From NCBI GenBank assembly GCA_965209085.1, contig OZ242376.1:1216001-1280000 (forward strand): a stretch of 64,000 nucleotides of DNA, in the 5' to 3' direction. This document shows positions 2-19,786 of this stretch, in pieces. The notes below the pieces were generated by a model, which made no database searches, was not told the origin of the DNA, and worked only from the letters and a program-made list of their open reading frames with translations. The DNA comes from Nitrosopumilaceae archaeon. Lineage in GTDB: Archaea > Thermoproteota > Nitrososphaeria > Nitrososphaerales > Nitrosopumilaceae. The number at the start of each line of letters is the position of its first letter. Positions within the stretch are counted from its first letter, which is position 1. The translations under genes and the position numbers were made by a program.

Positions 2-3000
2 GCATTCTCCATAACAGGTCCATACGGTTCTGGCAAATCTACTTTGGCAGTATTTTTGGAAGGGTTGTTATCTGCAAAAAAAGATCCTGCATACGAACAA
101 TCCAAGAAATTTCTAGACAGCATATCCTCAGAAGTGTCAGAAATATTGGAAGATGGTCGCCATATACTCACTGCACAAAGGAATGGATTCATACGATGTA
201 CGATAACCTCACAGTCTGAACCAGTCTCAATATCTGTAATACGAGCGCTAGATCGTGGTGCAAGAAAATATTTTGGGAATAAATATAGTAACAAGCATTT
301 TGCTACCGCCTCTGCACTTCATAATGCCATAAACGTGGTCGAAAATGCGACCATTAAAGGCAATATTGCAGAAATTCCAGATGCGCGATCTATTCGCTAT
401 ATTGTAGCAGGCATGTGTGAAAAAGCGCCAGTACTTTTGTTACTAGATGAATTTGGCAAAAACATGGAATATTTTGCAAAAAACGACAGTGTAGCAGACA
501 TGTACCTGTTGCAAATGTTAGCCGAATACGGCAGTGGTAAAAAAGCACTCCCGTTGTTCCTCATCACCTTGCAACACATGGCATTTGAAGAATATTCAGA
601 GGGCATATCTGCACCAAATCGACGTGAATGGTCAAAAGTGCAAGGTCGTTTTGATGACATCCCATTTTCAAATTCACCACAACAAACATGGGAATTAATA
701 TCAAATTCCATTGATATTAGCCCGTTTCCTCTAAGCCTAAAAACATGGTCAAAAAATCAACATAAAAAATTACTAAAAATTACAAACAAATCAATACCTA
801 GCACATTACAAATTGGTAATTGTTACCCATTACATCCCCTATCTCTAGTAACTCTCCCAGAATTGTGTACTAGATACGGTCAACATGAAAGAACTCTACT
901 CTCGTTTATGGTTGGAAGTGGTAAAAACACTGTGCATGATTTTTTGGATAATAATAATTGGGATCCACAAAACCCGTCTACAGTTGGTCTAGATGTATTG
1001 TATGATTATTTCATATCTGGACACAGATCGGTTCACAACCATACATCAGCCAATATTACTCTCCTAATGGAGATTCATCTAGTAATACGGGATTCTCACG
1101 GCCTCTCAAATCTAGCATCAAAGGTATTGAAGACAATCGGACTGCTAAACCTGTTGAGCATATCTGGACCTCTTAGGGCATCATCTAGCATGCTAGAATA
1201 TGCAATAGGCAAAGATTATCAATCAGCAATCCAGGAATTGCGACAGCGTTCCATAATTACATACAGGGAATATGCTGATGAATTTCGGGTCTGGAGGGGA
1301 ACTGATGTTGATCTCCAGTCATCAATAGACATTATACGCCACAGATATACCAAAACTCCCCTCCACGAGATCTTGGAAAAAGTTCAAAATCTTGATTCAA
1401 TGGTTGCAGCAAGACATGGTATCCGTAAAGGTACAATGCGTACCTTTGAGAGAGGGTTTTTGGACAATAAAGGGAACAGAATTTATGAACCTGAAAATGA
1501 CGACGGATTGGTTCTGTACTCTAGCGGGGATATGGTACAATCTACAAAGAAAATCGCAAAACCTGTAATCATAGTAGAATCTAGAGATGATCTTTTACCC
1601 CTGAGGCATTCTGCAATAGATGCACTATCCATAAAGGAAATTTTGGATACAGATCCCAACGTATCAAAAGATTGGGTTGCACGCAAGGAATTATGGGAAC
1701 GTATGGAATGGGCTACAAGCTCAGTAGAAGAGGAATTTCGTAGAGCATACGATCAGAATGCAACTTGGTGGTATATCAATCCACCAAATGGTAAAAAGAT
1801 CAAACTATCTGGAACAGGCGGCATGGCCATATCCCAAGCATCTGATTTAGCGTATGATATGATGCCACGCATACTCAACGAAATGATAAACAGAAATCAC
1901 CTATCAGCACAATCATCACGTGCACGTGCATTATTGGTTAATTCTATGATAAATCATGAACACGACATTCGTTTTAACATCAAAGGCTGGGGACCGGAGA
2001 GAGCAATGTATGAAGCTATTTTTGCAAATACAAAACTACACATTAAATCCAGTAAAAATTGGAATCTTGTAGAATCAGGAGGGAAATTCAAAAATGTATG
2101 GATACATGTAATGAAATATCTCGGATCAAACAAGGAGAGACGAATAAATTTGAATGAGATCTATATGGAGCTCCAAAAACCACCATTTGGGATAAAACTT
2201 GGTCTGATCCCGATAATAATAATATCAATGTTTGTGGCTAGTCACAATAAGATTGCCTTGTATGAGCATGGAACATACTGTCCGGAACTAGAACCTCAGA
2301 TACTAGAACGAATGTACAAAAACCCCAAATATTTTGAATTCAAATATTTTGGAGACAAGATGAATTTGCGACGCAGTATAATAACCGCAGTTGCAAAAGA
2401 GATGGAAATTACTTCAAAATCCAACAATGTTGAAATTTTAGACATTGTTGGAAAATTGGTAAAAACCATTGTAAAACTTCAAAAATATACCAAACATACA
2501 AAATCGTTCAAAGATAAACATACGCTAAAAGTACGCGATGCAATAATCAATGCAACAGAGCCTGATACATTGTTGTTTGATCTTCTTCCACAGGCTCTAA
2601 ACATTGATTTATTTGGAAAACATGCAAATGTTAGGACAATAAACAAATTTGCAAAAAATCTTGCTCGCTCACTGCATTTGTTAGAAAATACGTACGATGG
2701 TATGATTAATGATCTAGTCATCGAATTGTTAGATGTTTCTGGAATTGGGAAAAAAGAAGATCTAGTATCAGTTGCGGCCAATTTAAAAAATCAAATTAAA
2801 ATGGATCCAAAAATGCTCGGCATATTAAATGCCATATCTGTGGGAGATCTTGATGATTCTGATTGGATAACATACATTGCAATGGTTTTAACCGATGTGC
2901 CTCCAACCGATTGGACGGATCAGGATAAACTACAATTCAGTACAAACCTTGCAGAATTTGCAGCCAAATTCAAACGTATATTGGCAATACATGTTGATAA

Positions 3001-3238
3001 AATTAAAAAATCTGGCAGCGTACTACATCGTATTACCATTACAGAAAATACCGGACAAGAGTATATGAGCATGATACAATTAGATGATAAATATGGAACT
3101 AAATTCAAAACGGACGTACATAAATTAATCTCAAAAATAAAAAATGATAAAAATATTAAAACAGAAGAAAATGCCATTAACACAATTTTAGCTATACTTG
3201 GAAAAAAACTAGGTGTAAAAATTGCCAATACCGAATAA
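2..3238 (+). CDS. sspC: Large P-loop ATPase, SspC-like (phosphorothioation/BREX-C-related); 5'-partial
   Basis: Frame is open from base 2 and reads AFSITGPYGSGKST (Walker A) before the TTG at 44; Walker B LLLLDEFGK; EWSKVQGRF, CYPLHP, YGQHERTLLSF and PPFGIKLG motifs typical of the family; PAPS reductase nearby. Confidence 0.72.
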   Translation, partial: AFSITGPYGSGKSTLAVFLEGLLSAKKDPAYEQSKKFLDSISSEVSEILEDGRHILTAQRNGFIRCTITSQSEPVSISVIRALDRGARKYFGNKYSNKHFATASALHNAINVVENATIKGNIAEIPDARSIRYIVAGMCEKAPVLLLLDEFGKNMEYFAKNDSVADMYLLQMLAEYGSGKKALPLFLITLQHMAFEEYSEGISAPNRREWSKVQGRFDDIPFSNSPQQTWELISNSIDISPFPLSLKTWSKNQHKKLLKITNKSIPSTLQIGNCYPLHPLSLVTLPELCTRYGQHERTLLSFMVGSGKNTVHDFLDNNNWDPQNPSTVGLDVLYDYFISGHRSVHNHTSANITLLMEIHLVIRDSHGLSNLASKVLKTIGLLNLLSISGPLRASSSMLEYAIGKDYQSAIQELRQRSIITYREYADEFRVWRGTDVDLQSSIDIIRHRYTKTPLHEILEKVQNLDSMVAARHGIRKGTMRTFERGFLDNKGNRIYEPENDDGLVLYSSGDMVQSTKKIAKPVIIVESRDDLLPLRHSAIDALSIKEILDTDPNVSKDWVARKELWERMEWATSSVEEEFRRAYDQNATWWYINPPNGKKIKLSGTGGMAISQASDLAYDMMPRILNEMINRNHLSAQSSRARALLVNSMINHEHDIRFNIKGWGPERAMYEAIFANTKLHIKSSKNWNLVESGGKFKNVWIHVMKYLGSNKERRINLNEIYMELQKPPFGIKLGLIPIIIISMFVASHNKIALYEHGTYCPELEPQILERMYKNPKYFEFKYFGDKMNLRRSIITAVAKEMEITSKSNNVEILDIVGKLVKTIVKLQKYTKHTKSFKDKHTLKVRDAIINATEPDTLLFDLLPQALNIDLFGKHANVRTINKFAKNLARSLHLLENTYDGMINDLVIELLDVSGIGKKEDLVSVAANLKNQIKMDPKMLGILNAISVGDLDDSDWITYIAMVLTDVPPTDWTDQDKLQFSTNLAEFAAKFKRILAIHVDKIKKSGSVLHRITITENTGQEYMSMIQLDDKYGTKFKTDVHKLISKIKNDKNIKTEENAINTILAILGKKLGVKIANTE

Positions 3239-3254
3239 TCTACCCCCCAATATT

Positions 3255-4286
3255 ATGAAATTAAATATGACAAAATATGTTATAATATCATCGATTGTGC
3301 TTTTACTAGTTATCTCTAATGTAGGTATCGCACACATGCAAAATTCCAATACCATCCCTTCATGGATAAAAAATAATGCAAAATGGTGGAGTGATGGCGC
3401 AATTACAGATAATGAGTATATATCATCTTTAGAATATCTCATCGAACATAAAATAATAAAAATTGAAAATGATTTACAACAAAGTACAGAAATAATCGAT
3501 AATGGTGAATTTTACATAACTTATGATCCAAATCTAAACACCGCATATGAAGGGATAGATATAGCTCTCAGATATTTACAAGAGTATGAAATTTTAGAAA
3601 ATGAAGTTGAATTTCTTAATGAACATTTACGTTTACCCTATGATGTTGAAATTTTAGCTACAGAATGTGGAGAAATAAATACATTATATTATCCTGATGA
3701 AAAACAAATTGTAATATGTTATGAATTTGTAGATTATGTTTTTGAGCTATATCATTATTATAATGAATATGATGAAAATGATGATTATGTAAGTAATTAT
3801 GCATATTCAGTAATTATTGGAGCATTTTATCACGAATTAGGCCATGCATTAATTGACATATATCAATTACCAATTTCGGGTTTGGAAGAAAATGTTGTTG
3901 ATCAATTTTCTGTATATATGATGGATTTTTTTGTTGGTGATGATTATAACTGGTCAGGAGCTGATATGATACTTGCTAACGGATATAGTTATGATTTAGA
4001 AAATGCCTGGCTGAATGAATTTGAAGATGCCTATGAAGAACGCATATATCATGATACTCATGGATTAGATGCTCAAAGAAAATATAATCTGTATTGTTGG
4101 GGATATGGATCAAATATCATAGAATATGAATTCATGATAACGGAGGGACATTTGCCAGAAGAGCGTGCATATAATTGTGAATTAGAATATAGTCAAATAG
4201 TTGATGCATGGCAATATTTCTTAGATGATTATGATTACGGATTTTTTGAGTTAAATTCTGAACTAGAATGGAATTCTTCATCATAG
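3255..4286 (+). CDS. Secreted DUF4344-type zinc metallopeptidase with thaumarchaeal IPxWIKNNAxWW domain
   Basis: Signal peptide; IPSWIKNNAKWWSDGAITDNEY repeat domain; HELGHALID...LPISGLEENVVDQ; HGLDAQRxYNxxCWxYG. Confidence 0.8.
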   Translation: MKLNMTKYVIISSIVLLLVISNVGIAHMQNSNTIPSWIKNNAKWWSDGAITDNEYISSLEYLIEHKIIKIENDLQQSTEIIDNGEFYITYDPNLNTAYEGIDIALRYLQEYEILENEVEFLNEHLRLPYDVEILATECGEINTLYYPDEKQIVICYEFVDYVFELYHYYNEYDENDDYVSNYAYSVIIGAFYHELGHALIDIYQLPISGLEENVVDQFSVYMMDFFVGDDYNWSGADMILANGYSYDLENAWLNEFEDAYEERIYHDTHGLDAQRKYNLYCWGYGSNIIEYEFMITEGHLPEERAYNCELEYSQIVDAWQYFLDDYDYGFFELNSELEWNSSS

Positions 4287-4355: not shown

Positions 4356-5162
4356 ATGATCATGGGAGATATTCCAACTAGAGATGACATAAGCATAGGC
4401 TCATCAGTACATGTAATCTGCAAAAATGATCAAAAAAGTGGTAAAATCACAAAAGGTATCGTTAAAAAAATATTAACAAAGTCACACGATCATCCATATG
4501 GAATAAAAGTAGAACTTGAAGACGGTAAAATCGGCAGAGTAAATAAAATTGAAACTCGTAACATCACATCTGCAGTAATAAATAACAAAACAAATCCAAA
4601 TGAATCCATTTTTGAATTACTTGATGAAAAAATTATACCGAATACAGAAGATACACAAAATGAATTCAAAGAATTTTATCAATACGATGAAGATATGGCA
4701 AAAATACCATTAAATATGTCGAATAGAAATTCAATAATAAACACAAAAGCTAAAGTTGTTCAAAAAAGATTTGTTATTGCAGTTTGTGCATTTGGCAATA
4801 GCCAAATAGGTGGTTTTGTTTACATCGGAATCGATGCTAAAGGGAAAATTATGGGGTTAGATAGAGATATGAAATTTGGAAAATTTTCAAATTATACTGA
4901 TGAATTTGCAAATCATGTAAGGGATACACTTGGCCATTATTTGCAAAATAGATCTTTTGTTGTCAGTAAATTAAAATTTGAATTTACAAAAAGAAATGAT
5001 AAAACCATATGCATAATACAAGTATCTCCATCAGATGATGCATTATTTTTTACTGATGGTAAATTATCCGAATTTTATGTACGTGGACCAGCGCCAAGAG
5101 CTGAACATCTTACTGGTAAAGATATGGCCACATATATTATGGGCAGATTTCAAAATAATTGA
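4356..5162 (+). CDS. YwbE (DUF2196) domain fused to Schlafen/AlbA_2 nuclease domain
   Basis: N-term KNDQKSGKITKGIVKKILTKSHDHPYGIKVELEDGKIGRV = YwbE; C-term EDTQNEFK, CAFGNS.GG..YIGID, FYVR = AlbA_2. Confidence 0.8.
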   Translation: MIMGDIPTRDDISIGSSVHVICKNDQKSGKITKGIVKKILTKSHDHPYGIKVELEDGKIGRVNKIETRNITSAVINNKTNPNESIFELLDEKIIPNTEDTQNEFKEFYQYDEDMAKIPLNMSNRNSIINTKAKVVQKRFVIAVCAFGNSQIGGFVYIGIDAKGKIMGLDRDMKFGKFSNYTDEFANHVRDTLGHYLQNRSFVVSKLKFEFTKRNDKTICIIQVSPSDDALFFTDGKLSEFYVRGPAPRAEHLTGKDMATYIMGRFQNN

Positions 5163-5353: not shown

Positions 5354-7111
5354 GTGTGGCGTCTAAAATTATCTGTGGGAACTGCAAAATTAGTAGAACT
5401 AAGTGAAAAACAAATACGAGACATATTTGGACATGAACATCATTATCAAGTTCCAAAATATCAAAGAGAATATTCATGGTCAGATGAACAAATTAGTGAA
5501 TTTATGTCTGATTTGTTTGAACATGTGGATAACGAATTAGAAAATTATTATTATTTTGGAACAATTTATCTTATTGGTATTAATGATAAAAATGAGGAAT
5601 GGATGGTTGTCGATGGTCAACAACGCATAACTACATCACTCATTTTTCTTACTGTTGTTCGTGACATAATTAGAGAATTTGATAAAAATGACTATGCAAA
5701 TGAAATTGATCGATATATAAAATATCAACACGAATCAGAATATAAAATACGTTTAGAATTAAATACTAGAAATAATGATTTTTTTAAAAATAATATGATG
5801 ACAGATAGGACAACTGATCAAAAATTTTTATCGTTCAAATCTGCTGAAAGTCAAAATAAAAATCTTGTTGATGCATATACAAATATTTATGAACATATAC
5901 AGAATAAAATTAATAAATTAACAAAACAAGATATAAAATTAGAATATTTGAAAAATACTGTAGAATATTTTCTGAAATATTTTATTGTGACTCAAAATAT
6001 TGTTGAATCACATGAAGTCGTTCAAGAAATTTTCGATACAGTAAATCATAGAGGAATACAATTATCGGAAATGGATTTTGTTAAAAATGAAATACTAGAA
6101 CTAATTGAACAAGATAAAGATGAAAATGAAGATGTTGGAGAATGGAATCAACAGTGGATAGAAATTTTAAATATTCTAAATATGATCAAAGTAAAAGAAA
6201 CTCAATTTCTTCGACATTATTTATTAGCATATCATAAAAAAACTGCAATGAAAAATGTTGCCAATACAATTATTTCTATTGTTGAAGATGGAATACCACC
6301 GACAGAATTTATTAAAGAATTACGCTCTACAGTAACAAACTATGCTATACTAAAGAATCCACCATCATTCCGTGAAAACAGGAAATTACATAATAGTTTG
6401 AATGCAGTAATATCATTAGAATCACAGACATTATATCCTGCATTGTTAGTTGGATATGAAAAATTAGGAGATAGTGAACTATTTATCAAATTGACAGATA
6501 TGTTAGTAAAATATTTTTTTAGAGCTAGAACGATATATCATAAAGAATCCCACAATATTGAAAACGCCATAGTGAAAATCTGTGTTATGCTAAGAACAAT
6601 CCCAGATACTCCATCACAAGATGTCTTGGAAGGTATCAAAAACTATCTTCATTCCCCAAAAATAAATCCGTCTGATGATGATTTTGTGTCTGCTTTTAAA
6701 ATATGCACAATAAAAAATGAAAGTACCGCAATCTATATTCTAAGTAAACTAAATGAAGCAATGTCTGGTCATGATCAAATTGACAATCCATTTTTAGAGT
6801 ACATAATGCCAAAAATGATTACAGATACTAAATGGGATGAATATTTAAGGGGTAAATTAAGAATAAGTGATATCAATGATCGTAAAATTTATCATTTAAA
6901 TAATTTATATAAAATTGGAAATATGACTTTACTTAATACACAACATGTGCCCAGTTCAGATTATATCGATATAAAAATAAGTACAATATATAATGATGAA
7001 AAAATACTAATGACAAACTCTTTGAAAAAATTTATCAAGTGGGATGAAGAAGATATTAAAGAACGTCAAGAAATGTTTTCAAAGTTAGCTAGAAAAATTT
7101 GGCAATTATAG
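5354..7111 (+). CDS. DUF262-DUF1524 (GmrSD/SspE-like) protein with altered HNH motif
   Basis: PKYQREYSW, VVDGQQRITT, FDTVNHRGIQLSEMD (DUF262); C-term LEYIMP...KIGNMTLL...IKERQ (DUF1524, EHxxP His replaced by Tyr). Confidence 0.85.
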   Translation: MWRLKLSVGTAKLVELSEKQIRDIFGHEHHYQVPKYQREYSWSDEQISEFMSDLFEHVDNELENYYYFGTIYLIGINDKNEEWMVVDGQQRITTSLIFLTVVRDIIREFDKNDYANEIDRYIKYQHESEYKIRLELNTRNNDFFKNNMMTDRTTDQKFLSFKSAESQNKNLVDAYTNIYEHIQNKINKLTKQDIKLEYLKNTVEYFLKYFIVTQNIVESHEVVQEIFDTVNHRGIQLSEMDFVKNEILELIEQDKDENEDVGEWNQQWIEILNILNMIKVKETQFLRHYLLAYHKKTAMKNVANTIISIVEDGIPPTEFIKELRSTVTNYAILKNPPSFRENRKLHNSLNAVISLESQTLYPALLVGYEKLGDSELFIKLTDMLVKYFFRARTIYHKESHNIENAIVKICVMLRTIPDTPSQDVLEGIKNYLHSPKINPSDDDFVSAFKICTIKNESTAIYILSKLNEAMSGHDQIDNPFLEYIMPKMITDTKWDEYLRGKLRISDINDRKIYHLNNLYKIGNMTLLNTQHVPSSDYIDIKISTIYNDEKILMTNSLKKFIKWDEEDIKERQEMFSKLARKIWQL

Positions 7112-7283: not shown

Positions 7284-8322
7284 CTAAAAAATTAGATAAT
7301 CGTGCAGTTTGACAAGTTTCATCTGTTTGGACAGTATGACCTTGTCAATTTTCTTTTTCAGGTGTCTGATCGATTCAAAATGCCCATTTGATATGCATTT
7401 TCGTAAAACACGCCACTGGATTTCTATAGGATTCAGCTCTGACGTATACGGTGGAAGATAAATTAACCTGATTCGTCCTTTTCTAGATTTGACGTATTCG
7501 AATACGTCACAGTGGCGATGATAAGAGGCATTATCGTACACTATTGTCACATGATCAAACTCTTTTTCCAGGATTTTTATAAAATCCAAATGGCTGTCTT
7601 TGTTTGCTTTATCGTAAAACTCGAATATGAAAGAATCCTTGTTCAAGCTCCAAACATGGTTATTCTGTGTCTAGTCGGATCCAATGGAACTTGGGGTTTG
7701 CTGCCTATGAGGTACCATGTGTCACGGATATTGGTTGTTGGATGCAGATGAATCTCATCCATAGCCACGGTTACTGCTCAGTGTGCCTCTCTGCCAATGT
7801 GCCTAGCTTTTTTCTAAAGTGCTCCTGTTCACTCTTTGATGCATCTTTGGGATGGTACTGACGGGGTTTTTGAATTGTAAATCCAAGACGTTTGAGTAGA
7901 TTTTGTACAAAACGAGGGACATATTTTACTTTGAATTTTTTTCAGATGTGATCCGTTACCATTACAGTAGACCATGCGGACTGACCATATCTGTATTTTT
8001 CAGGTACGGCAATCAGATCCTTTGTTAGTTTTTCAAGCTGTTTTTCTAAAAAATAGCATCCCCTGCCAAGATGTTTTATGTTGTATCTGAAGGTTAGTCA
8101 TCCTCCATTACCCGTATGAGCCATTTGCATATTGTTGTCTTTTTTACGCCAAGTTCCTCGCCAATTTCCTCTCATTGTTTTACCCTATTTTCTTTTAATC
8201 CATGAGAGAAGACGCTGTTTTGCAACTGGAATCTTTTCTTTTGCATGACAATTTCTAAGATATGCGATGCTCATGTTTGGCATGAACTTGATGCCTGCCG
8301 GAATTCTGTTCTGTCGTGTCAT
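7284..8322 (-). pseudogene. IS630-family transposase, fragmented
   Basis: C-term DDE_3 motifs IVYDNASYH and LPPYTSELNPIEIQW (7284-7646); N-terminal part (MTRQNRIPAG..., ATG 8322) broken by stops/frameshifts. Confidence 0.85.
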
Positions 8323-8413
8323 ATTTGCTCTGAAACCTGATGCGATCTAAACGTAGCGGTCAAATTTTTGTTAGAGTGGTTGAATGTAATTGACAACTTC
8401 TTATGCTATATCA

Positions 8414-10162
8414 CTAGTTTTCTAACGTTTTCATTAATTCAGCAAGACGCCTACTCCAATCAAATCTGACATTTCTTAAATTTCTCAGTTCATCATCCGA
8501 TAGACTATGATTTTCATAATATGCCCAGGATACAAACATCAAATTTATAGCTACACGTAACTTATTCATGATATTTTTGATATCCTTCATATCAATATCT
8601 TCTGGAATTTTTTCAATGGCTCCAACTATGTGCTTATAGGCTGGATGAAGTTCATTTAATGTTATTATAGTAAGTCCACTTTGAAAATCAACATCAAAGA
8701 AATAATTGTTAGCTAATTGTGCAGTTATAAGTTGAGTTTTCACTTTGTTCGTTAACATTAGTTTAGCTTCTACAGATGCTTTTTCAGGATCAAATATTTT
8801 GGAAAGTGCTTCAGTTAAAACTTTTTCTTTCTCATCATTTGACATGTTTTCTTGTTCTTCAGTCCTAGTTGGACTTGTGTCTGTATCAGGATAAAGATTG
8901 GAATCACGGTCAGAATTTTTTTTAGGACCCGCATTTGTACGCTTAATTCTAGTTCTCATGGCACGAATTCTAGCGTTTATGTGTATCACTAATTTTCGTA
9001 AATCGTCTAAGTCATCATCATCATCATCATAATCTTGTTGTTCTTCATTACGAGATATTGCACCAATTTCCTGAGTCATAGCAGAAAAATTATTGGCATC
9101 CTGTTTAGTATTGGATACACCAAACACATCATCTAATGCAGTAGGAAATTCTAGTTCAACACCCCACCATCGTTCTAACGGATCATATGTTTGGCACAAG
9201 TTGGTATCGACGTATAACTCTCGATTTGCACGTATTAATGAGACTCCTAGGTTAGAATTAGCATGTTTACCATGAGTGAGACTTCCTGCTAATTGACCGT
9301 TTATCGGTGTTCTTGCTTCTTTGGTTGCAAACGTACAGCGGATTATTACATCATGACCATCCACAGATACAACATCCTCTAATTTATCACCATCAATCTG
9401 AAACATGGGGGTTTTGTCCCACGGGGTCGGTAGCCTTGTCGGAACCATTTGATAAAGTGGATCATTTGGGTGTATGTTATGAGTTTCAGCCATTTCATTA
9501 GTGTCAAGATCAAAAGTTACAACACTGATTTTAAGATTATTATTATGGATAAATTTTCGATATATTCTACCAACAAGTTTTTCTAAATTTTTTACCAATG
9601 TTTTTGATTTTTTAGATCGAATTTTATCTATATCTTCCCAAATAACCATAGTTCCTGATTTTGAATTTTTAAGATATTTGGATTTATTTTTCCAAAGTTT
9701 TGGCAATTCCGTTTTTTGTGGTTCCGTGGATCCTAAACCATCGGTAATACTATCAATAATGTTTATTTCTGAAAATAATACTTCATTAGGATTTAACCAT
9801 GAATATACAGTAACATGTTTACATTGGGACATAGATGATTGTGGGAGTCCTAATCCAAATTTACCAATTCCTTTTGTTTCACGATGTGTACCAGCACCAG
9901 CTGTAAGAGAATCCCACAATTCATTTTTATTCATTCCAACGCCATCATCGATTATTGCAATTTTTTCTAAACGTTTTGTAATCCTCTGGGATGAATAATT
10001 TTGTTTTTCTGCACATAAGATCTCAATATGTTTGGATTCGGCCTCTACTGAATTATCTATTATTTCGGCAAGTGCATATATTGTATTTCTATATGAAACA
10101 CTACGCATCGATGTAGCAAGTTGCTGGCCAGTATAAACGGGACGAATGTTAGTCATTACCAA
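8414..10162 (-). CDS. MORC-type GHKL ATPase (HATPase_c_3); candidate SspFGH-type effector subunit
   Basis: Bergerat-fold motifs ALAEIIDNSVEA, IIDDGVGM, IGKFGLGL, SGTMVIW; LDDVFGVSNTKQ; overlaps upstream helicase stop. Confidence 0.85.
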   Translation of the reverse strand: MVMTNIRPVYTGQQLATSMRSVSYRNTIYALAEIIDNSVEAESKHIEILCAEKQNYSSQRITKRLEKIAIIDDGVGMNKNELWDSLTAGAGTHRETKGIGKFGLGLPQSSMSQCKHVTVYSWLNPNEVLFSEINIIDSITDGLGSTEPQKTELPKLWKNKSKYLKNSKSGTMVIWEDIDKIRSKKSKTLVKNLEKLVGRIYRKFIHNNNLKISVVTFDLDTNEMAETHNIHPNDPLYQMVPTRLPTPWDKTPMFQIDGDKLEDVVSVDGHDVIIRCTFATKEARTPINGQLAGSLTHGKHANSNLGVSLIRANRELYVDTNLCQTYDPLERWWGVELEFPTALDDVFGVSNTKQDANNFSAMTQEIGAISRNEEQQDYDDDDDDLDDLRKLVIHINARIRAMRTRIKRTNAGPKKNSDRDSNLYPDTDTSPTRTEEQENMSNDEKEKVLTEALSKIFDPEKASVEAKLMLTNKVKTQLITAQLANNYFFDVDFQSGLTIITLNELHPAYKHIVGAIEKIPEDIDMKDIKNIMNKLRVAINLMFVSWAYYENHSLSDDELRNLRNVRFDWSRRLAELMKTLEN

Positions 10163-11790
10163 ACATCATCCCATTTAAAAAAAGCGTCTACAGGATCAGT
10201 GAATTGTGATAACGCATTATCTTTAATTACACGTATGTCACATTCTTTATTTCCGCCAACATTAATTCCACGCATAGCTCTGCCCACCATTTGACTGTAC
10301 AAAACAAGCGATTTTGTCGGTCTTGCAATTACAACTGCAGATGTTTTTGGGGCATCGAATCCAGTAGTAAATACTCCAACATTACACATGATTATTACAT
10401 CATCTGTTTCGGATTTATATTCGTTGATTAGTTGACTTTTAGTAATTGGATCAGTATCTGCATCAATATGGAATGATTTATGTTTAAGATACGTTAGAAT
10501 TATAGATATATCTCTAGAATTTTTAACACTAGCACCAAATACAATTATTCTTTTATGTTTTTCTGAGTTTATTAGATCTTTGATCTGACCGATAACCCGA
10601 ATGGTGCGACTAATATCCTTACCAATCTTATCAAGTATTGTATCCGGAATATCCGTGGGGGAATTAAAAATTTTTATTAAATCATCATCAGTTAGTTTTA
10701 TGTCGGATCGTATAGGTGTAATTTTTGGTTTAGACAAATATCCTTTTTTTATAAGATATTTTATTGGATTTTTATATCCAGATATTGTCAAGCTTACCTT
10801 ATTACAATTAAAAAATGATGACAATTCATCACTTTTTGATATCGAGGTTCTTCCAGGAGTCGCACTTAACCCCAATAACGGTATTTTATTAAAACGTTTT
10901 TCTGTTAATTGTTCTAAAATTTCCAAATATGTTGGCGCTATTGCTTGATGGGCTTCATCCATTATCACTAAATCTACACGATCAGCTAACTTACTAAGAA
11001 ATAATTCATCCCGTTTACTTTTTTGAAAAATTTTTCCTAAACTAGCTACAATTAAACCATCTTTATCAACATCAGTATATTTTATTAAATTAGTAGAATG
11101 ATTTCGAAAAAAACGAAATATGCGTATATTTCTATCTCCTGCATTGATCCACGTTTGTTTAAATTCATCAATTGCTTGCTCGCAAAGTTCTTCACTATAT
11201 GCCAACCAAATTATTAATACAGGTTTAGTTCTTGAAAAAAATGTCGATATTACTCGCATTGCAGTAATTGTTTTACCAGAACCAGTGGGCATATGTAAAA
11301 TACAACGCCGTCCATCATCATTATCTAAATAATTTACAATTTCCTCATATGCTTTTCTTTGATAATCAAATAATGATCTTTTTGGCATCACATTTTCTAT
11401 ATCACTTAATGTGGGAGGTTCATCTAATTCTATAGGAATTTTTTCCCCAAAAAATTCAAATAAAATTTTTTCAGATGTACTGTTTTTATTAAATGGGATA
11501 TTATGCATTTCTCTGTATACGTTATCCTCATTTAACTGAACATTTGTTATTTTTTGTAATAATTTTATTAATTCTGACGGACGCATACTATTTAATAATA
11601 ATTCTCTGATTTTTTTAGTTCGTAACATCTCTAGATGTGTATAATGTGAGGAAATGCATTGGCGTAATTTATGTGGATGTTGTAATTGCTCATCACTCAT
11701 CAATTGTATTATTTTAATTGCTTCTTTACTTATGAAATGATCTTGAATGGCAAGTTCACCCAATCGGTTAAAAATATCATCTAATTTCAA
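10156..11790 (-). CDS. SF2 DEAH (ResIII-like + Helicase_C) helicase; candidate SspFGH-type subunit
   Basis: MPTGSGKT, DEAH, GLSATPGR, VFTTGFDAP, QMVGRAMRG. Confidence 0.9.
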   Translation of the reverse strand: MKLDDIFNRLGELAIQDHFISKEAIKIIQLMSDEQLQHPHKLRQCISSHYTHLEMLRTKKIRELLLNSMRPSELIKLLQKITNVQLNEDNVYREMHNIPFNKNSTSEKILFEFFGEKIPIELDEPPTLSDIENVMPKRSLFDYQRKAYEEIVNYLDNDDGRRCILHMPTGSGKTITAMRVISTFFSRTKPVLIIWLAYSEELCEQAIDEFKQTWINAGDRNIRIFRFFRNHSTNLIKYTDVDKDGLIVASLGKIFQKSKRDELFLSKLADRVDLVIMDEAHQAIAPTYLEILEQLTEKRFNKIPLLGLSATPGRTSISKSDELSSFFNCNKVSLTISGYKNPIKYLIKKGYLSKPKITPIRSDIKLTDDDLIKIFNSPTDIPDTILDKIGKDISRTIRVIGQIKDLINSEKHKRIIVFGASVKNSRDISIILTYLKHKSFHIDADTDPITKSQLINEYKSETDDVIIMCNVGVFTTGFDAPKTSAVVIARPTKSLVLYSQMVGRAMRGINVGGNKECDIRVIKDNALSQFTDPVDAFFKWDDVW

Positions 11791-12011: not shown

Positions 12012-12860
12012 CTAGACTGCGGCAGCTAAAATGGGAATATTATGGCACAAGACAAAAAAGCCCAATTCAATTTTCTGTGTTGCAAATTTGCTGGCACTTA
12101 GAATAGAAGAAACCTTCTCTTCATGGATGAAAACATGGCCTCTACATTGCTGCGTTTGTAGTATATGGATAGAAATTCATCAGGATTATCAAGATGCCAT
12201 CGTATCCATTGCGTCAAATCCACGTACACGAACACCTTTTCTTGGCATTATTACAGGAATTTGTCCGGTCTTTTCTATTAGCGTGCATATGTTGCGTGAA
12301 AGGTATGCTGCATCAAGCATCACGTGACCGGAACCGTGCGGCAGTGTGCCACATATTTGCTCAAATATTGGTACATCATGGCATCGTGTATGGGTAATAT
12401 CATATGATATGATGATTATGCTGTTTTCAGCAGTTACAATATACAATTTGCGATAATCCCATCTGAACCTTGATCCATTTTTTGCATAAAGCCACGTGTT
12501 ATGCCCGTTTATTGCAATTCCTGTAGAAACCCAGTACAGTGTACCTTTCATTCCAGGTCTACCTGCAGAATTTATCATCCATGTGATGAAATGCTCATCA
12601 ATTCTAGTAAATGTTACCTGCAACACCGACCTTGACGGCACTCTTTTCAAGCCCAGTATTGATAGTAAACGTGGTGAATCTTCAAGATAATCTACGAGTT
12701 CATCATATAACAATTGTTGCATTGTCTTTAGGGCAATATACGTAGTCATTCCCAGGGGCTGTTTCTAGCGGCGATCTGTATTGGTTTTTGACTCAAATCC
12801 ATTGCGGTGTACATTGTCTTTTTCGTGGTTTGAGGGATTTTTGATTTTTTTGTACATACC
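12012..12860 (-). pseudogene. IS4/IS5-superfamily (DDE_Tnp_1-type) transposase remnant
   Basis: LGLKRVPSRSVL, YRKLYIV, HD, MLDAAYLS in 12189-12749; frameshifted tail YYKRSNVEAMFSSMKRR (Y-x2-R-x3-E-x6-K); in-frame stop near the 5' end. Confidence 0.8.
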
Positions 12861-14009: not shown

Positions 14010-15379
14010 AGAGTTTATGCACAATCAATCCCATAGACATACGATTCTGACTGTGGCATTACCATGATCAAAACGCATAGTGAATAAAGTTCTCAAGCAG
14101 ACAACAAAATAAATCAAAATGTCATATATATGACAAAAAGCAAAATATTATGCGTGACCGTGTGCACAAAAATGTACTATTTGATTTGCGGGCAGACTCT
14201 CTCCAACGGTTCGATGTATTTACGATCCTTTAACATGTTATGCAGATTGGTCAGTCCTGTAACCACTTGGATTTCTGTATAAAACGCATCCATTGTATCA
14301 TCACATATGGCACTCATTCTACGGAACCATTTGAGCCGGTTTATGGCATGCTCTATTTTTATGCGCTTACGACTGATCCTCTTGCTGTATTCGCGTTCCG
14401 TCTCTGTCAGCCCCTTACCCTTTGGTTTTTTGTACGGCTACTTTAAGATAATTCCAGGATAGTCTTTTTCCACGGACAAGTATCCCTTGTCGGTGTAGAG
14501 TGTAATTTGGTACTCTTTTTTGGTATCAGAGTTTTTCATACCATCGGTCCATTTGCCAAAATTTGGCAGATTACGTCGCAGTACCTTCATGTCGTGTGCC
14601 GAGCCCTCTTCGGGTCTGCCAATGTCAAGTACCAGCCCATCCTTGTTGGATGTTATCTGTACGTTGTAGACGTACCTCTTACGCTTTCCAGAGTATACTA
14701 CCTCTTGGCTCTCCTGCGGTCTTTGAACCTGTACAGATGTGGCATCAAGATACAGATCTCCACCACCCCTGCCTGATGCGAATTTTTTAAACGACTCGAC
14801 GGTACGCTCTTCCCGTATTGCAGCACCAACATTCTCAGCCGTTGGAAGAATATTCATCAACAATTCATCAGAAAAGGTCAGATATCGGCTGATGGTACTC
14901 TGATCAACGCCGGCAATGACCGCAAGCATTTCCTGTTGGGGGTTATTGCGCTTGTGGCAGTGTGACAAACAAAATTTGTGGCGCAGTAAGGATACATGTA
15001 TTTCCCGGATCGTCGACATATTCTGAAAAGCGAGGGGTTTCTGGCGAGTCTACAGCGTTTATGAACCGTTCCTGAATCCATTCAAATTCTTCACGATCCA
15101 TTCCAGTCATCCCGTATAGATAATTATCATCATCAACCATATGGTTCAAGTATTAGTAAGCAGATTGTTTTTCGGTCTTATCCCCATCTATCATTTTTTT
15201 GTAGCGTTGATTTTCTGCTTCAAGATTGGAGATTCTTTTTTCCAACTTGGAGATTATTCTTTTTTCCAACTTGGAGATTATACGTTTGTCTGTGGCACAC
15301 ATGTTGTGTGGTTGTAATACTTGATCATAGATCTTTCGATTCATCAAAATTGCTTTTTTGGTTAATATGCACAAACTCT
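14010..15379 (-). mobile_element. IS5-family (ISL2/IS702-like) element, degraded copy
   Basis: Ends AGAGTTTATGCACAATCAA (14010) and TATGCACAAACTCT (15379); ATT direct repeats at 14007-14009 and 15380-15382; transposase broken into 15153-15374, 14943-15149, 14438-15019 and a tail; close homolog of 17055-18251. Confidence 0.9.
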
Positions 15380-15428: not shown

Positions 15429-16256
15429 CTACAAATGACACATTGTACACGATTTTGCGTCATCTTCATCATCTAGCGCTTCAGATAAAACATCAACCAA
15501 TGGCAAGTTTTTTCGACTAGATTTTGCTTTTAAAAGTGCAAGTTTATGTTTTTCTTCAATTTCAGAACGCCTACCAATTAATTCTGGCAATGTTTCCCCC
15601 GGAGACCAAGAATACTGACGTTCTTTCATAGCATGATCTTCAAATGAGGATTTTCCATCATTCATTACTTTTTGTTCTATAGCTACGGCCTGTTTAAATA
15701 AATCAGGATGTTTATCAGCTAGTCCTACCCATTCGGATTTTCTCTGAAAAAAACAAAAATAACAACCAGAACGTGTGCGCCATTCATAATAATCAGGCAA
15801 ACCTATTCCAGATTCTTCCAGTATGCGTAATATGTCCACATGTTCCATATTGTCATCTATAAAAGGAAATTTAGTTGTAATGTTGGGTTTTGACGAAATA
15901 TGTCCTTTACGGTTTTTTTCATCTGCACGAATTGCCACATATGATACAGTTTCATCATCCCCAATCCATTCTTCTAGTGGTTTGATCTTTAATAATTTAG
16001 TACACCATCGCATTTGGGGGGATGGTAAAGTTCCACGAAATACCTCAAAATAATGATCAAATCCCCTCTTAGAATTAAGTCGGGCTATAGGTTTGCCAAG
16101 CACTGTTTCTAATTTTTTCAAATAAGTATAAGTCTCTGGAAGCTCAGCTCCGGTATCACAGAAAAAATACTCCATTTCTGGAACTTTTTCACGCATATAC
16201 ACTGCTAATGCACTAGAATCCTTCCCTCCAGATATACCACAAACATGTCTAACCAT
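15429..16256 (-). CDS. sspD: PAPS-reductase-family protein, SspD-like (DNA phosphorothioation)
   Basis: ISGGKDSSALA, DTGAELPETY, RWCTKLLK, RSGCYFCFFQ, C-terminal CTMCHL; short form without DndC extensions; SspC-like ATPase in same island. Confidence 0.75.
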   Translation of the reverse strand: MVRHVCGISGGKDSSALAVYMREKVPEMEYFFCDTGAELPETYTYLKKLETVLGKPIARLNSKRGFDHYFEVFRGTLPSPQMRWCTKLLKIKPLEEWIGDDETVSYVAIRADEKNRKGHISSKPNITTKFPFIDDNMEHVDILRILEESGIGLPDYYEWRTRSGCYFCFFQRKSEWVGLADKHPDLFKQAVAIEQKVMNDGKSSFEDHAMKERQYSWSPGETLPELIGRRSEIEEKHKLALLKAKSSRKNLPLVDVLSEALDDEDDAKSCTMCHL

Positions 16257-17021
16257 GCCTAATGTTATAGAGTCATGATTTTAAAACTTTTATTTGGAAA
16301 CTATCAATTTCATAACTAATGGATGAAATAAGCCCATGGGGGTAATGCTAGAATATATAAAATATGGGGATCTGAAAAAATACCCGATATTAGATCTGGA
16401 AGTAGTTTTATTGTTATGGGATATGCAAAATATAATAGCATATTAAAGAAAAATAAATCATTTTCGTTAGAACCGGATCTAGTGGTTGTAGATGAAGCTC
16501 ACCAAATCATCGTCAAAAAATATGTAAAATTATTACATTTGCTCACACCATTTTTGAAAGGTACGAGAGTAATTGTATTATCTGCCACTCCAGGTAGAGG
16601 TACAAAAATAGAACAAAATTTGAAACTAGTAGAATAATTTAACGATAATATAGAAAGAATCAGCGTTCCTAATGAATCGACTGAAAAATTAGATGATCAT
16701 AATGTAATTGCACATTTAGAAGAGCAAGGAATTCTATCCAGGATTGATCCTGACCCATTGATGACAAATATTAGATTTGATCTTTCAGATAAGGTTTGAA
16801 AACGTTTTGTCAAAATGATTGGAGATAAATATACTGATTTTGAAGAAACTGATCTTGTAAATCTTACCAAAAATATTCATAGAAATGCATTGACAGCACA
16901 ACGAATAATAGAATTATTAAAAAAGAAAAAAAGAATTTTATATTTTTGAACCACAAGCGAACAAACGTTGTTAATGTATGCGGTGATTTTAAAATTAGGA
17001 TATAATGCAGGATATGTTAAT

Positions 17022-18418
17022 AGACCTCATGCATAATTAACTAAAAAATCAATTTTGGCAAATCGAAAGATCTATGATCTAGTATCATGTGAGCATAGCA
17101 TGTGCAAATCAGACAAACGCATGATCTCTAAACTGGAAAAGACGATCTTAAAGATGGAAAAGACGATCCTAAAGATGGAAAAGAATAGCTCCAGGCAGGA
17201 ATCAGAAATTCAACACTACAAAAAGATGGCACAGAGTAGCAATGATGACAAAAGACAACATGTCGATAAATATTTGAACAAGGGAATTGGGAATGATGTT
17301 CATCTATATGAAATGACAGGAATGAACCGTGAAGAATTTGAATGGATTCTAGAACGGTTCAAAAAAACCGTAGAAAATTCATCAGAGATTCCCCGCTTTT
17401 CAGAATATGTGGACGATCCTGGAAACACCTGTATCCTTACCGTAAAGCAAGTTTTGTTTATCGTATTGTGCCGCAAACGCAATAATCTCAAACAGGGAGC
17501 ACTTGCGTTCATTGCAGACGTTGATCAGAGCACCATTAGCAGATATCTGACATTTTCTGATGAACTATTGATGGATATTCTTCCAACGGCTAAGAATATT
17601 GGTGCTGCAATACGGACAATACGTACAAGCGAGTTGTTTAAAAAATTCGTACCCGGCAGAGGCGGCGGCGAGCTATATCTTGATGCCACGTTTGTACAGG
17701 TTCAAAGACCGCAGGAGAATCAAGAGGCAGTATATTCTGGAAAGCGCAAAAGGCACGTCTACAGCATACAGATAACCTCCAACAAAGATGGAGTGGTAAA
17801 TGACATTGGCGGTCCAGAAGAGGGCTCAGTACATGACATGGAGGTACTGCGGCGTAATCCGCCAAATTTTGGCAAATGGACCGATGGCATGAAAAACTCT
17901 GATACAAAAAAAGAGCGCCAAATTACACTCTACACCGACAAGGGATACTTGTCCGTGGAAAAAGACTATCCTGGAATTATCTCAAAGCAGCCATACAAAA
18001 AACCAAAGGGTAGGGGATTGACAGAGACAGAACGCGAATATAGCAAGAGGATCAGTCGTAAGCGCATAAAAGTAGAGCATGCCATAAACCGGCTCAAATG
18101 GTTTCGCAGAATGAGTGCCGTATATGATGACACAATGGATGCATTTTATACAGAAATCCAAGTGGTTACAGGACTGACCAATCTGCACATCATGTTAAAG
18201 GATCGCAAGTATATCGAACCGTTGGAAAAAATTTGCCCTCAAATCAAGTAGCACATCTTTGTGCATACAGTCACGCATAATATCCTGCTTTTTGTCATGC
18301 ATATGATATTTGGATTTATTTTGTTGTCTGCTTGAAGGTTTTAGGCCATATGTACTTTGATCATGACAGTGTCATAGTAGGAACCGTATGTCTTTGCAGT
18401 TGATTATGCATGAACTCT
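17022..18418 (+). mobile_element. IS5-family (ISL2/IS702-like) element, apparently intact
   Basis: Imperfect TIRs AGACCTCATGCATAATTAACT / AGTTGATTATGCATGAACTCT; AAT target duplication at 17019-17021 and 18419-18421. Confidence 0.92.
17055..18251 (+). CDS. DDE_Tnp_4-type transposase with HTH and N-terminal coiled coil
   Basis: VDQSTISR (HTH), LDATFVQVQRP, YSGKRKRH, GSVHD, DKGY, RIKVEHAINRLK. Confidence 0.92.
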   Translation: MANRKIYDLVSCEHSMCKSDKRMISKLEKTILKMEKTILKMEKNSSRQESEIQHYKKMAQSSNDDKRQHVDKYLNKGIGNDVHLYEMTGMNREEFEWILERFKKTVENSSEIPRFSEYVDDPGNTCILTVKQVLFIVLCRKRNNLKQGALAFIADVDQSTISRYLTFSDELLMDILPTAKNIGAAIRTIRTSELFKKFVPGRGGGELYLDATFVQVQRPQENQEAVYSGKRKRHVYSIQITSNKDGVVNDIGGPEEGSVHDMEVLRRNPPNFGKWTDGMKNSDTKKERQITLYTDKGYLSVEKDYPGIISKQPYKKPKGRGLTETEREYSKRISRKRIKVEHAINRLKWFRRMSAVYDDTMDAFYTEIQVVTGLTNLHIMLKDRKYIEPLEKICPQIK

Positions 18419-18766
18419 AATGCAAAAACAGATAAAGAATTTAGAAAACAATTCATCATCAATAATTTTAGGGGTGGTGAAATTGACATTATTTTCAATC
18501 ATTCTGTATTTATCACATGATTTGATGCACCAGAAACTGACGTAATTTTTATTGCACGACCAATCTGCTCTCCAATATTAATATCTCAAATGGTTAGCAT
18601 AGGATTAAGAGGGTCCAATGTTGGAGGGACCAAATCATGTACGTTAGTACAAGTTGTAGATGAACTCAACAATCCATCTGAATTTGATCCGTATGCCAGC
18701 TATAGAATATTTCATCCGTATTGGCAAATTGATTCAGAATAATTTTTTCAACAGTACAAAATTTAT

Positions 18767-19786
18767 TTACATACGTCTTTCCATAAACCCATATTCTTTA
18801 CAATTGTTATAATGTCTCTTTATTTCAGGTTCCCAGCCACGGCCCAAATCTAGCGTAGCAAGTGATTTTTTTAATACAGGTATTTGATGTTCATATTTAA
18901 TATTACGCTCTATCAGATAATTTAAAAACTTGAATTGGGCTAGAGAATTACTTTTTTTACAATTGCATTCCTGACATGCCAGTACAAGATTCCATGCACT
19001 GTCTTCAAATATGTAAGACCAAGGTATGAAATGATCCACATGTGTTGAAGGCATTTCATTCAATGTGCCATTACAGTAAAAACAATGTTTGACATCCTTG
19101 TATGTATTTAGATAATGGGTTAACGAACGTCTTCGTGCTTCTTCGGTTTCTATTTTTGCAATAAGTCTAGGAAATGTGTTGATTTTTTCAAGAAATTTAG
19201 ACCATTCCAATATCACTGTTTTAAACAAAACGGCATAATTTTGATTTAAAAAAACTGCAGCTTGTGGGAACAAAGTTATGTATTGTTTATCATCATCAAA
19301 ATCATAAAATATATTTTTCTGCATTACTTTGGCACCGATTCTCACATTTTGAAATCGCGGGACAACTAGAGATGTTTTTATGCGGGCATGTCCAAATACT
19401 TTTTTTAATATCTTTTTCCTTGCAGTTTTTACCAAATTATTTTCATTTTGTGCATATTTAGAAAACCCTTCTGGAATATACTGATCACCGAACGTACTGC
19501 GTAATATTTTAATGACTGATGGGGGCCTTTCATTGTAAAAATTTTGTTTTATCCTGTATCTGAATTCTTGATGCCAATAATATCTCAAAAATGCGTCTGC
19601 TAGCTCTTCATAACGTATGATGATTGTTTCATTAGTTTCCACCATCTTTGATAATCTGCTTGCAGGTAGAGCATTGCAATAATCCAAAAGAAATCTTGCT
19701 AACGCAAATTTGTAGGTATTATTTTTGTAACCGTGCGTCATAATGTGTATGAAAGTTTTTCTCAACTCGTCGGATTGATTCATCAT
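18767..19786 (-). CDS. HNH endonuclease with N-terminal recognition domain (putative type IV-like restriction enzyme)
   Basis: NTYKFAL N-terminal motif; CFYC...HVDHFIPWS...WNLVLACQECNCKKSN. Confidence 0.85.
   Translation of the reverse strand: MMNQSDELRKTFIHIMTHGYKNNTYKFALARFLLDYCNALPASRLSKMVETNETIIIRYEELADAFLRYYWHQEFRYRIKQNFYNERPPSVIKILRSTFGDQYIPEGFSKYAQNENNLVKTARKKILKKVFGHARIKTSLVVPRFQNVRIGAKVMQKNIFYDFDDDKQYITLFPQAAVFLNQNYAVLFKTVILEWSKFLEKINTFPRLIAKIETEEARRRSLTHYLNTYKDVKHCFYCNGTLNEMPSTHVDHFIPWSYIFEDSAWNLVLACQECNCKKSNSLAQFKFLNYLIERNIKYEHQIPVLKKSLATLDLGRGWEPEIKRHYNNCKEYGFMERRM

Follow-up and report, generated by a model that had tools for sequence, protein, structure and literature searches.

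F0, a gene joining a YwbE domain to a Schlafen domain

In a stretch of 64,000 nucleotides from a Nitrosopumilaceae archaeon (positions 1,216,001 to 1,280,000 of contig OZ242376.1, assembly GCA_965209085.1; hereafter the window), we examined a gene, F0, which fuses a YwbE (DUF2196) domain to a Schlafen-type AlbA_2 domain and is predicted to encode a nuclease of a defence island. F0 is an intact open reading frame (ORF) of 268 amino acids at positions 4356-5162 of the forward strand, on which all of its parts described below lie, and it runs from ATG to TGA. The Pfam scan revealed DUF2196/YwbE (PF09962) at residues 6-65 with an E-value of 1.4e-24 (86.2 bits, cut-off 25), covering profile positions 2-61 of 61, and SLFN_AlbA_2 (PF04326) at residues 98-243 with an E-value of 7.5e-10 (39.8 bits, cut-off 25.3). 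Both sequence matches are far beyond chance and above the Pfam cut-offs, which bears out the two-domain fusion that a first-pass annotation of this DNA had read in the ORF. The same scan found only these two domains and no helix-turn-helix (HTH) domain, and no PADLOC model matched F0.

The AlphaFold2 model of F0, which was built with 41 relatives, has a mean predicted local distance difference test score (pLDDT) of 88.5. In it, a barrel of four strands at the N-terminus is connected by a disordered segment to a C-terminal alpha/beta domain that is well defined. The YwbE domain occupies positions 4371-4550 (residues 6-65) and was also modelled as a small, four-stranded beta-barrel. It is followed by a linker at positions 4551-4646 (residues 66-97), marked by low pLDDT and gappy alignment columns, and by the predicted Schlafen/AlbA_2 nuclease domain at positions 4647-5159 (residues 98-268). 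A linker had been described earlier as short; it is present, but it is about 30 residues long and residues 68-83 have pLDDT values below 50. Its length varies among the relatives, and SAP motifs are inserted there in two of them (P0116 and P0099). A homologue of the same length (P0001) shares 95% identity with F0.

Fold and active-site residues of the Schlafen domain

When we compared the F0 model with the PDB using Foldseek, 14 matches were obtained at E <= 0.001 (8.8e-05 to 9.1e-04), and all of them were AlbA_2 proteins, namely DIP2311, the DNA-binding/tRNase (tRNA-cleaving) domain of SAMD9, SLFN11, SLFN14 and SLFN13. The best structure in VIA-align was DIP2311, an AlbA_2 protein of unknown function (3lmm, Z 13.3), and the human SAMD9 effector domain (7ksp, Z 13.1, 162 residues aligned, root-mean-square deviation 3.6), the rat SAMD9 tRNase (9o0d, Z 12.6), SLFN14 (9uie, Z 11.6) and SLFN5, SLFN11, SLFN12 and SLFN13 (Z 8.0-9.4; 5yd0, Z 8.7) also matched. 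The top 20 rows were all AlbA_2 proteins, after which Z fell to 4.4. Residues 84-233 of the model superpose on residues 181-323 of SLFN13 and 188-327 of SLFN11, which form the lobe with the active site. A profile of the F0 family, searched against PDB sequences, matched 14 Schlafen entries (SLFN11, SLFN14, SLFN12, SLFN5 and SLFN13), the best of them SLFN11 at 8.5e-08. As modelled, the C-terminal domain of F0 has the AlbA_2/Schlafen nuclease fold, and the fold expected from the sequence is supported by the matches to SAMD9 and SLFN structures.

The segment EDTQNEFK at positions 4647-4670 reads E98-x4-E103-F104-K105. E103, F104, K105 and D171 are invariant among the 41 aligned relatives, whereas E98 is present in 40 of them and D111 in 39; the Ex4ExK motif is intact in 16 of the 17 distinct F0 loci described below. 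The earlier reading of an intact E-x4-E-x-K motif therefore stands. In prokaryotic Schlafens (pSlfns), Ex4(E/D)xK is described as the catalytic motif, and mutating it kills the tRNase activity of RorSlfn5 (PMC13056530). For AlbA_2 domains, an active site with three or four acidic residues has been reported (PMC12680541, PMC10246899). We took the equivalence of the EFK motif from the SLFN14 wild-type and E211A rows and not from HMMER's own alignment; HVEFK of the wild type is HVAFK in the E211A entries, so the catalytic Glu corresponds to the E of EFK. Relative to mammalian Schlafens, the stretch from EFK to the AFGN helix is longer in the F0 family by about 19 residues, which include a conserved QYD motif, and because of this insertion the HMMER alignment of the EFK region to SLFN14 is shifted.

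The Asp of YIGID had been read as a further active-site residue, a candidate for the third, and conservation does not support this. That residue, D160, is Asp in only 5 of the 41 relatives, and the invariant acid is D171 of the 'GLxxD' motif (positions 4866-4868). An acidic residue is found somewhere within 160-162 in 37 of the 41, and in the HMMER alignment the loop 158-GIDAKG-163 corresponds to the Schlafen loop GVDDKS, while D171 aligns with Glu in SLFN11, SLFN12 and SLFN14. These positions are candidates for further acidic active-site residues of the kind known from the SLFN13 D248 loop and from SAMD9 E218/D241. One F0 copy (locus L093 of genome G335, 9724-10497) shows a degraded motif, NKF-EFY replacing NEFKEFY, together with changes at otherwise invariant positions; judged by its sequence, this copy is probably inactivated, though it stands beside an intact cassette of the kind described below.

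The YwbE domain

The YwbE domain modelled alone formed a small beta-barrel with a pLDDT of 85. Foldseek found no match for it at E <= 0.001 (E >= 0.17), and VIA-align against 48,161 chains gave none at Z >= 5, the best Z being 4.4. The weak structural matches were a mixture of Tudor, SH3, KOW, Sm and ribosomal-protein barrels. At the level of the model, the fold is a generic small beta-barrel that gives no specific ligand lead, and the model lends no specific support to a role as an RNA- or ribosome-binding module. The N-terminal position does not point to RNA in particular: one relative (P0144) has a ribosomal S17e domain there, and other relatives carry DNA-binding modules (Mrr_N, SAP, GmrSD).

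The N-terminal 65 residues of F0 share 45-61% identity with stand-alone YwbE members, and V18, K23, T32, G34, L40, T41, H46, P47, G49, K51, V52, L54 and G57 are invariant between F0 and 33 such members. Like stand-alone YwbE/DUF2196 proteins (PF09962, TIGR03833), the F0 N-terminus fits the full family profile. The difference is that in F0 the domain is a module of a predicted nuclease and stands in a defence context, whereas the stand-alone YwbE genes of the relatives have housekeeping-type neighbours (PGK, NifU, KARI and zinc-finger proteins) and no defence context. DUF2196 occurs, stand-alone or fused, in 20 of 61 genomes of the family. The window's own genome has a stand-alone YwbE paralogue as well, an 87-amino acid ORF about 34 kb upstream of F0 (G000:C1:1186680-1186859, reverse strand; locus L110, 1435-1695), next to an rve-type insertion sequence (IS).

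In a tree of 73 YwbE domains, which was built on 63 alignment columns and for which the stand-alone set was picked from matches to F0, the fusion-borne domains cluster, with 5 label changes against about 24 in shuffles; in this sequence tree they are not strictly one clade. A search for longer YwbE-containing proteins, limited by its word index, gave only close relatives. Among the papers listed for DUF2196/YwbE, none contained 'DUF2196' and, judged by title and abstract start, none dealt with the protein. YwbE is widespread and has no known function, and the fusion gives it a first testable context.

A family of fusions and a shuffled AlbA_2 module

The near-length homologues of F0 formed 104 clusters at 90% identity, in which both Pfam domains were found in 96, PF04326 alone in 7 and PF09962 alone in 1. 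The DUF2196 and AlbA_2 combination is thus a recurrent family. At the level of 50%-identity representatives, 1843 matched F0 at E <= 0.001 and 24 at E <= 1e-30, and short stand-alone YwbE proteins are the majority among the 150 matches listed of those 1843. Matches in the ESM Atlas were YwbE clusters only.

We also scanned 32 longer or odd relatives with Pfam for domain architecture, and their sequences show the AlbA_2 subfamily of F0 to be a shuffled module. Combinations that retain DUF2196 are GmrSD_N and GmrSD_C with DUF2196 and AlbA_2 (P0113), AbiTii with DUF2196 and AlbA_2 (P0044), and DUF2196 with SAP and AlbA_2 (P0116, P0099). In the others, AlbA_2 is joined to GmrSD (P0139), to three or four Mrr_N and a winged HTH (P0117, P0119, P0125), to TPR (P0118, P0136), to an AAA/STAND-like part (P0123), to TIR_2 (P0167) or, in a 1115-amino acid protein without YwbE on a metagenome contig (L095), to a DEAD helicase and MZB. 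P0113 shares 43% identity with F0 over 207 residues and aligns with the window's GmrSD gene (see below) over its full length at 23% identity. By sequence, this fusion ties together two genes that are adjacent in the window, F0 and GmrSD. In a further protein (P0144, 315 amino acids), the only member of its one cluster, the place of YwbE in front of AlbA_2 is taken by a ribosomal S17e domain (63.3 bits, cut-off 22.8).

In a sample of 401 genomes of the phylum, 7 have the AlbA_2 part of F0. They all belong to the window's family, where 6 of the 56 genomes other than the window's own have it, and the distribution is patchy and accessory. The loci that hold F0 relatives include those of Nitrosopumilus and Cenarchaeum, and the hosts are mostly ammonia-oxidising archaea. 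When we scanned a viral contig collection with the F0 family alignment, 27 pattern matches were obtained, none of which encodes a relative.

A recurrent cassette beside F0

ORFs were called and proteins clustered in 21 loci with an F0 relative (the window, genome loci and metagenome contigs), and these loci reduce to 17 distinct groups at 95% identity of the F0 protein. Two neighbours, a GHKL ATPase (F1, about 580 amino acids) and a superfamily 2 (SF2) helicase (F2, about 540 amino acids), lie within 5 kb of F0 in 14 of these 17 groups, so that the relatives do stand in defence contexts, as had been supposed. The three loci without F1 and F2 are L002 (= L092), L003, which is a 1.4-kb contig, and L095, which encodes the helicase-MZB-AlbA_2 protein. 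A third gene, F3 (320-350 amino acids), is present in 12 of the 14 cassette loci; it has the invariant H-x-K ... GN-x-S pattern of single-HKD, phospholipase D (PLD)-type nucleases, a weak PLDc_2 match and a conserved C-terminal half. An HNH gene of about 337 amino acids (F4) is found in 10 of the 21 loci, with near-duplicate and Cenarchaeum loci counted. The neighbours of the cassette are DndA/DndD/DndE or SspA-D, and the genes farther out differ by locus.

Two layouts recur. In five loci, F0 is followed by F3 in the same direction with gaps of -95 to +9 nt, and in eight loci F0 and F1 are divergent across a spacer of 72-110 bp. The association with the cassette spans F0 proteins that share only 35-50% identity. 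Of the 401 genomes sampled, 9 have F1 and 7 have F0, all of them in the window's family, and in the 6 that have both the two genes always lie side by side. Fisher's exact test over 57 family genomes gave p = 1.5e-5 for this co-occurrence, though related genomes are not independent. The association of F0 with the cassette is specific but loose.

The cassette, in which a GHKL/MORC-like ATPase and an SF2 helicase are combined with a single-HKD nuclease and often with an HNH gene, was noted for the window (where F3 was not found) and for L001, L089-L094, L097-L105 and L107-L109. Judged by gene content, it is a candidate for a restriction partner of DNA phosphorothioation that has no name yet, and it has probably not been described so far; among the literature matches listed, judged by what those records display, no paper joined phosphorothioation, MORC, SspABCD and PLD. 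Two known candidates were compared with it. PbeABCD consists of an HKD-helicase fusion, a small protein, a CxC ABC ATPase and a DndE cognate, as outlined in PMC10853773 and PMC6459918, and was rejected, as the HKD of the cassette is a separate gene (F3) and F2 fits the helicase part of PbeA only (PADLOC PbeA model, 1.3e-25 for the window's F2); the cassette also lacks the pair of CxC ABC ATPase and DndE by which Pbe is defined, and no PbeC-type ATPase lies next to F1 and F2 in the window. SspFGH, which comprises a Walker-A protein and an FtsK-like translocase (PMC8092258), was also rejected: the PADLOC models of Ssp restriction proteins, including SspF, SspG and SspH, have no match to F1-F4. 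Like PbeABCD, SspE and SspFGH, the cassette consists of restriction-type genes beside Dnd or Ssp modification genes; unlike PbeABCD and SspFGH, it has a GHKL ATPase and a separate HKD nuclease, plus a Schlafen gene. For 83.9% of sspBCD loci, no restriction partner is known according to PMC8092258, and for this reason the type of locus described here could help to define the missing restriction arm. F0 genes are found at the edge of the cassette, which accompanies Ssp genes as well as Dnd genes.

The island in the window

On the upstream side of F0, the forward strand carries an SspC-like ATPase gene at positions 2-3238, whose 5' end lies outside the window (PADLOC SspC, 3.6e-272); SspA (3.9e-125) and SspB (2.3e-83) are directly upstream of the window in the genome (L106). 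A GmrSD-type gene with DUF262 and DUF1524 (Pfam GmrSD_N and GmrSD_C) lies 192 bp downstream of F0 at positions 5354-7111 on the same strand. The HEC-06 and Orf5 models of PADLOC match it over its full length (HEC-06, 1.1e-80), and the SspE models match residues 24-135 only (1.3e-14). A complex prediction of F0 with the adjacent GmrSD protein gave a score of 0.01 (mark 0.32); this is no verdict and was counted neither way. F0 had been said to sit between defence genes, which is right for the downstream side; immediately upstream stands a DUF4344 gene with no PADLOC match, and the SspC-like gene lies beyond it.

The cassette genes of the window are on the reverse strand. F1, a GHKL/MORC-like ATPase of 582 amino acids (Pfam HATPase_c_3, 6.8e-20), is at positions 8414-10162, and F2, an SF2 helicase of 544 amino acids (Pfam ResIII, DEAD and Helicase_C), is at positions 10156-11790 and overlaps F1 by 7 nt. 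They are followed by SspD, which is PAPS-reductase-like (15429-16256; PADLOC SspD, 4.7e-108; Pfam PAPS_reduct), and by the HNH endonuclease F4 (18767-19858; Pfam HNH_4 and HNH), which shares 39% identity over 348 amino acids with the F4 of L101 in tblastn (E 3.7e-58). F3 was sought in the window by tblastn and was not found there. F1, F2, GmrSD, SspA-D and the HNH gene are all intact ORFs.

Comparison with known Schlafen systems

An antiviral tRNase role of prokaryotic Schlafens was demonstrated only in 2026, and sensing is the function proposed for their accessory domains. Perez Taboada et al. (Nat Microbiol 2026) describe 5,930 prokaryotic Schlafens with 55 domain compositions (pSlfn1-55), and report that a DUF262-Slfn fusion (EcoSlfn7, pSlfn7) and an Ig-like-Slfn fusion (RorSlfn5, pSlfn5) protect E. 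coli from phages and that RorSlfn5 is a phage-activated tRNase (PMC13056530). Like the pSlfns, F0 has a single AlbA_2 domain with the Ex4(E/D)xK motif, a fused accessory domain and a defence-island context. It differs from them in that the accessory domain is YwbE/DUF2196, in the extra residues with the QYD motif after EFK and in its mostly archaeal hosts. The DUF262/GmrSD gene of the window is a separate downstream ORF and not an N-terminal fusion as in pSlfn7, whereas in the relatives P0113 and P0139 the two are fused. The names DUF2196, PF09962 and YwbE are absent from the annotation workbook (supplementary file 21) and the 55 compositions of PMC13056530, and members of the F0 family could be among the 1,020 proteins that it calls 'unannotated fusion'. 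By its sequence, F0 is thus a YwbE-bearing class of the already established prokaryotic Schlafen effectors that is absent from the published catalogue, to which it adds YwbE/DUF2196 as a missing accessory domain.

The tRNase SA domain of SAMD9/SAMD9L and the C-lobe of the mammalian SLFN11, SLFN12, SLFN13 and SLFN14 have a fold that matches that of the F0 model (Z 8.2-11.6 for these SLFN proteins), and an antiviral role through tRNA cleavage has been described for SAMD9 and SLFN proteins (PMC10246899, PMC13056530). Unlike them, F0 shares only 14-26% identity, has one AlbA_2 domain rather than a two-lobed core, and is without helicase, STAND and SAM parts. In at least 1017 taxa, according to PMC12839542, Schlafen RNases are linked to BREX-type loci, and a role as backup effectors has been ascribed to them. 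Like these, F0 stands at the edge of a DNA-modification restriction locus and would be a second, suicidal layer; unlike these, it has YwbE as its partner domain and lies in an island of Ssp/Dnd phosphorothioation genes that also holds the GHKL-helicase-HKD cassette.

Proposed function and alternatives

We favour, with moderate confidence, the reading that F0 is a predicted Schlafen nuclease attached to a phosphorothioate-linked restriction island, for which it would be an optional accessory or a backup effector. The partners in this island would be Ssp or Dnd marking genes, the GHKL/MORC-like ATPase, the SF2 helicase, the HKD (PLD-type) nuclease and often HNH or GmrSD. The DNA-directed cassette would attack unmarked invading DNA as the first layer, and F0 would act as a second layer of the abortive-infection type that stays silent until a viral cue is sensed. 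F0 itself would be a metal-dependent nuclease, most likely an RNase that cuts tRNA or rRNA, and its YwbE barrel would be a regulatory, sensing or docking module that holds the nuclease in check or targets it. Once activated, F0 would cut RNA of the translation apparatus, and growth would halt. What the analysis shows is the domain architecture, the fold, the conservation of the catalytic-type residues, the recurrence of the family and the genomic association; nuclease activity, RNA as the substrate, the trigger and a functional link to the cassette are inferred.

The fusion of relatives to TIR_2, AbiTii, GmrSD, Mrr_N, a STAND-like ATPase, TPR and DEAD-helicase with MZB argues for a defence role of this AlbA_2 subfamily. 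By analogy, a layered defence would have precedents in the BREX-linked Schlafens, in the DUF262-Slfn fusions and in P0113. The first-pass annotation had proposed a sensor-effector antiviral nuclease, and this is consistent with the fold, the motif, the defence contexts and the tRNase activity described for a pSlfn (PMC13056530); its choice of D160 was not upheld, and it had missed the link to the cassette. If the favoured reading is right, the locus could show how DNA-directed and RNA-directed defence layers combine in ammonia-oxidising archaea. To our knowledge, the antiviral systems of these organisms have hardly been studied.

Several observations weigh against this reading and need to be considered. 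First, the cassette genes F1, F2 and F3 occur without F0 in 3 of 9 genomes (G036, G317, G323), beside Ssp or Dnd genes, and one genome (L002/G020) has F0 among housekeeping genes without the cassette. Second, while F1 and F2 diverge together (Spearman 0.89 for pairwise divergence), the divergence of F0 tracks that of F1 (rho 0.33; Mantel p 0.005) and F2 (rho 0.39; p 0.002) only weakly, and the F0 proteins of L097 and L102 are 5% apart beside F1 proteins that are 71% apart. The weak co-divergence and this mismatch argue against a tightly co-evolving protein complex. Third, the L093 relative has lost the EFK motif. Fourth, the AlbA_2 domain of SAMD9 also binds double-stranded DNA (title of PDB 7ksp; PMC10246899), and a DNA substrate is therefore conceivable for F0. 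Finally, the cassette in the window is degraded, since F3 was not found and IS fragments and the GmrSD gene separate F0 from F1. Based on the loose co-occurrence and the weak co-divergence, we suggest that F0 is a facultative companion that has been re-assorted among versions of the cassette, and not a co-evolving core subunit.

The same observations can be read in another way, which we regard as possible though clearly weaker: F0 might be an autonomous single-gene abortive-infection system, in which YwbE senses and the Schlafen domain executes, and its proximity to the cassette might reflect the general clustering of defence genes. In E. coli, one pSlfn gene is reported to be enough for defence, as with RorSlfn5 and EcoSlfn7 (PMC13056530), and the solitary F0 of L002/G020, the three cassettes without F0 and the near-identical F0 proteins beside very different F1 proteins, with weak co-divergence overall, all fit such a system. 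However, generic clustering in islands would give varied neighbours, and this counts against it: the neighbour is specifically F1-F2(-F3) in the 14 of 17 distinct loci, despite the divergence of F0 and the differing outer flanks, and F0 and F3 are packed operon-style in the five loci of the first layout.

A tRNA anticodon nuclease, PrrC, lies latent in the type I restriction locus EcoprrI and is unleashed when a virus disables restriction. PrrC-EcoprrI is the closest analogue of F0 in logic, although the protein family differs, and the Pfam scan of F0 found no PrrC-type ABC ATPase or anticodon-nuclease domain. On this analogy, F0 could be the guard of an undescribed phosphorothioate-linked machine formed by the GHKL/MORC ATPase, the SF2 helicase and the HKD nuclease; YwbE would dock onto or sense the machine or sulfur-marked DNA, and the tRNase would be released when a virus disables restriction. 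We consider such a guard unlikely. It would provide a first function for DUF2196/YwbE, as a sensor or adaptor, and would explain why stand-alone YwbE is widespread.

It is still less probable that F0 is a non-catalytic nucleic-acid binder, either a regulator of the divergent cassette or a reader of (modified) DNA that recruits the neighbouring nucleases. Regulators often diverge from the genes that they control, as F0 does from the F1 operon across 72-110 bp in eight loci. The model matches best the AlbA_2 protein of unknown function DIP2311, the SAMD9 AlbA_2 domain was crystallised bound to DNA (7ksp), and relatives hold DNA-binding modules in the N-terminal position. Against this reading, the near-invariant E98, E103, K105, D111 and D171 are what a metal-dependent active site predicts and are not required for pure binding, and F0 has no HTH domain by Pfam. 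That F0 is a decaying remnant of a broken island without present function is very improbable, since the ORF is full-length with all family-invariant residues present, the 95% identical P0001 is of equal length and F1, F2, GmrSD, SspA-D and HNH are intact, even though IS fragments are scattered through the island, the search of the window for F3 found none, the second helicase gene (see below) is split and the L093 relative has lost its motif.

Other observations on the island and the related loci

The DUF4344 gene upstream of F0 (3222-4286, forward strand) encodes a putative metallopeptidase by Pfam with a hydrophobic N-terminus; it overlaps the end of the SspC-like gene by 17 nt, and a counterpart is absent from all 20 related loci. 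The Ssp genes do not lie together: SspABC stand to one side, and about 12 kb separate them from SspD, which is on the opposite strand. Transposase genes or fragments lie at positions 7284-7646, 12189-12749, 14438-15019 and 17055-18251, with further ones at 7322-9620 and 12314-13075 of L106, and the types in and around the island are DDE_3, DDE_Tnp_1, DDE_Tnp_4 and rve. A second F2-like helicase gene on the forward strand (16335-17021 and 18419-18667) is apparently split by a DDE_Tnp_4 IS, and its 5' part is missing; the tblastn matches flanking this transposase cover F2 residues 228-439 and 439-520.

L097, with an F0 nearly identical to that of L102, has an F1 protein that resembles that of L104 (27% different) and is unlike that of L102 (71% different), and this comparison of sequences suggests recombination at the short divergent spacer between F0 and F1. 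On the other side of F0, the loci L094, L101, L102 and L103 have a recurrent set of genes encoding an MBL-fold and RMMBL protein of about 467 amino acids, a HIT protein, an HD and OB protein, and an HD and HD_assoc (dGTPase-like) protein.

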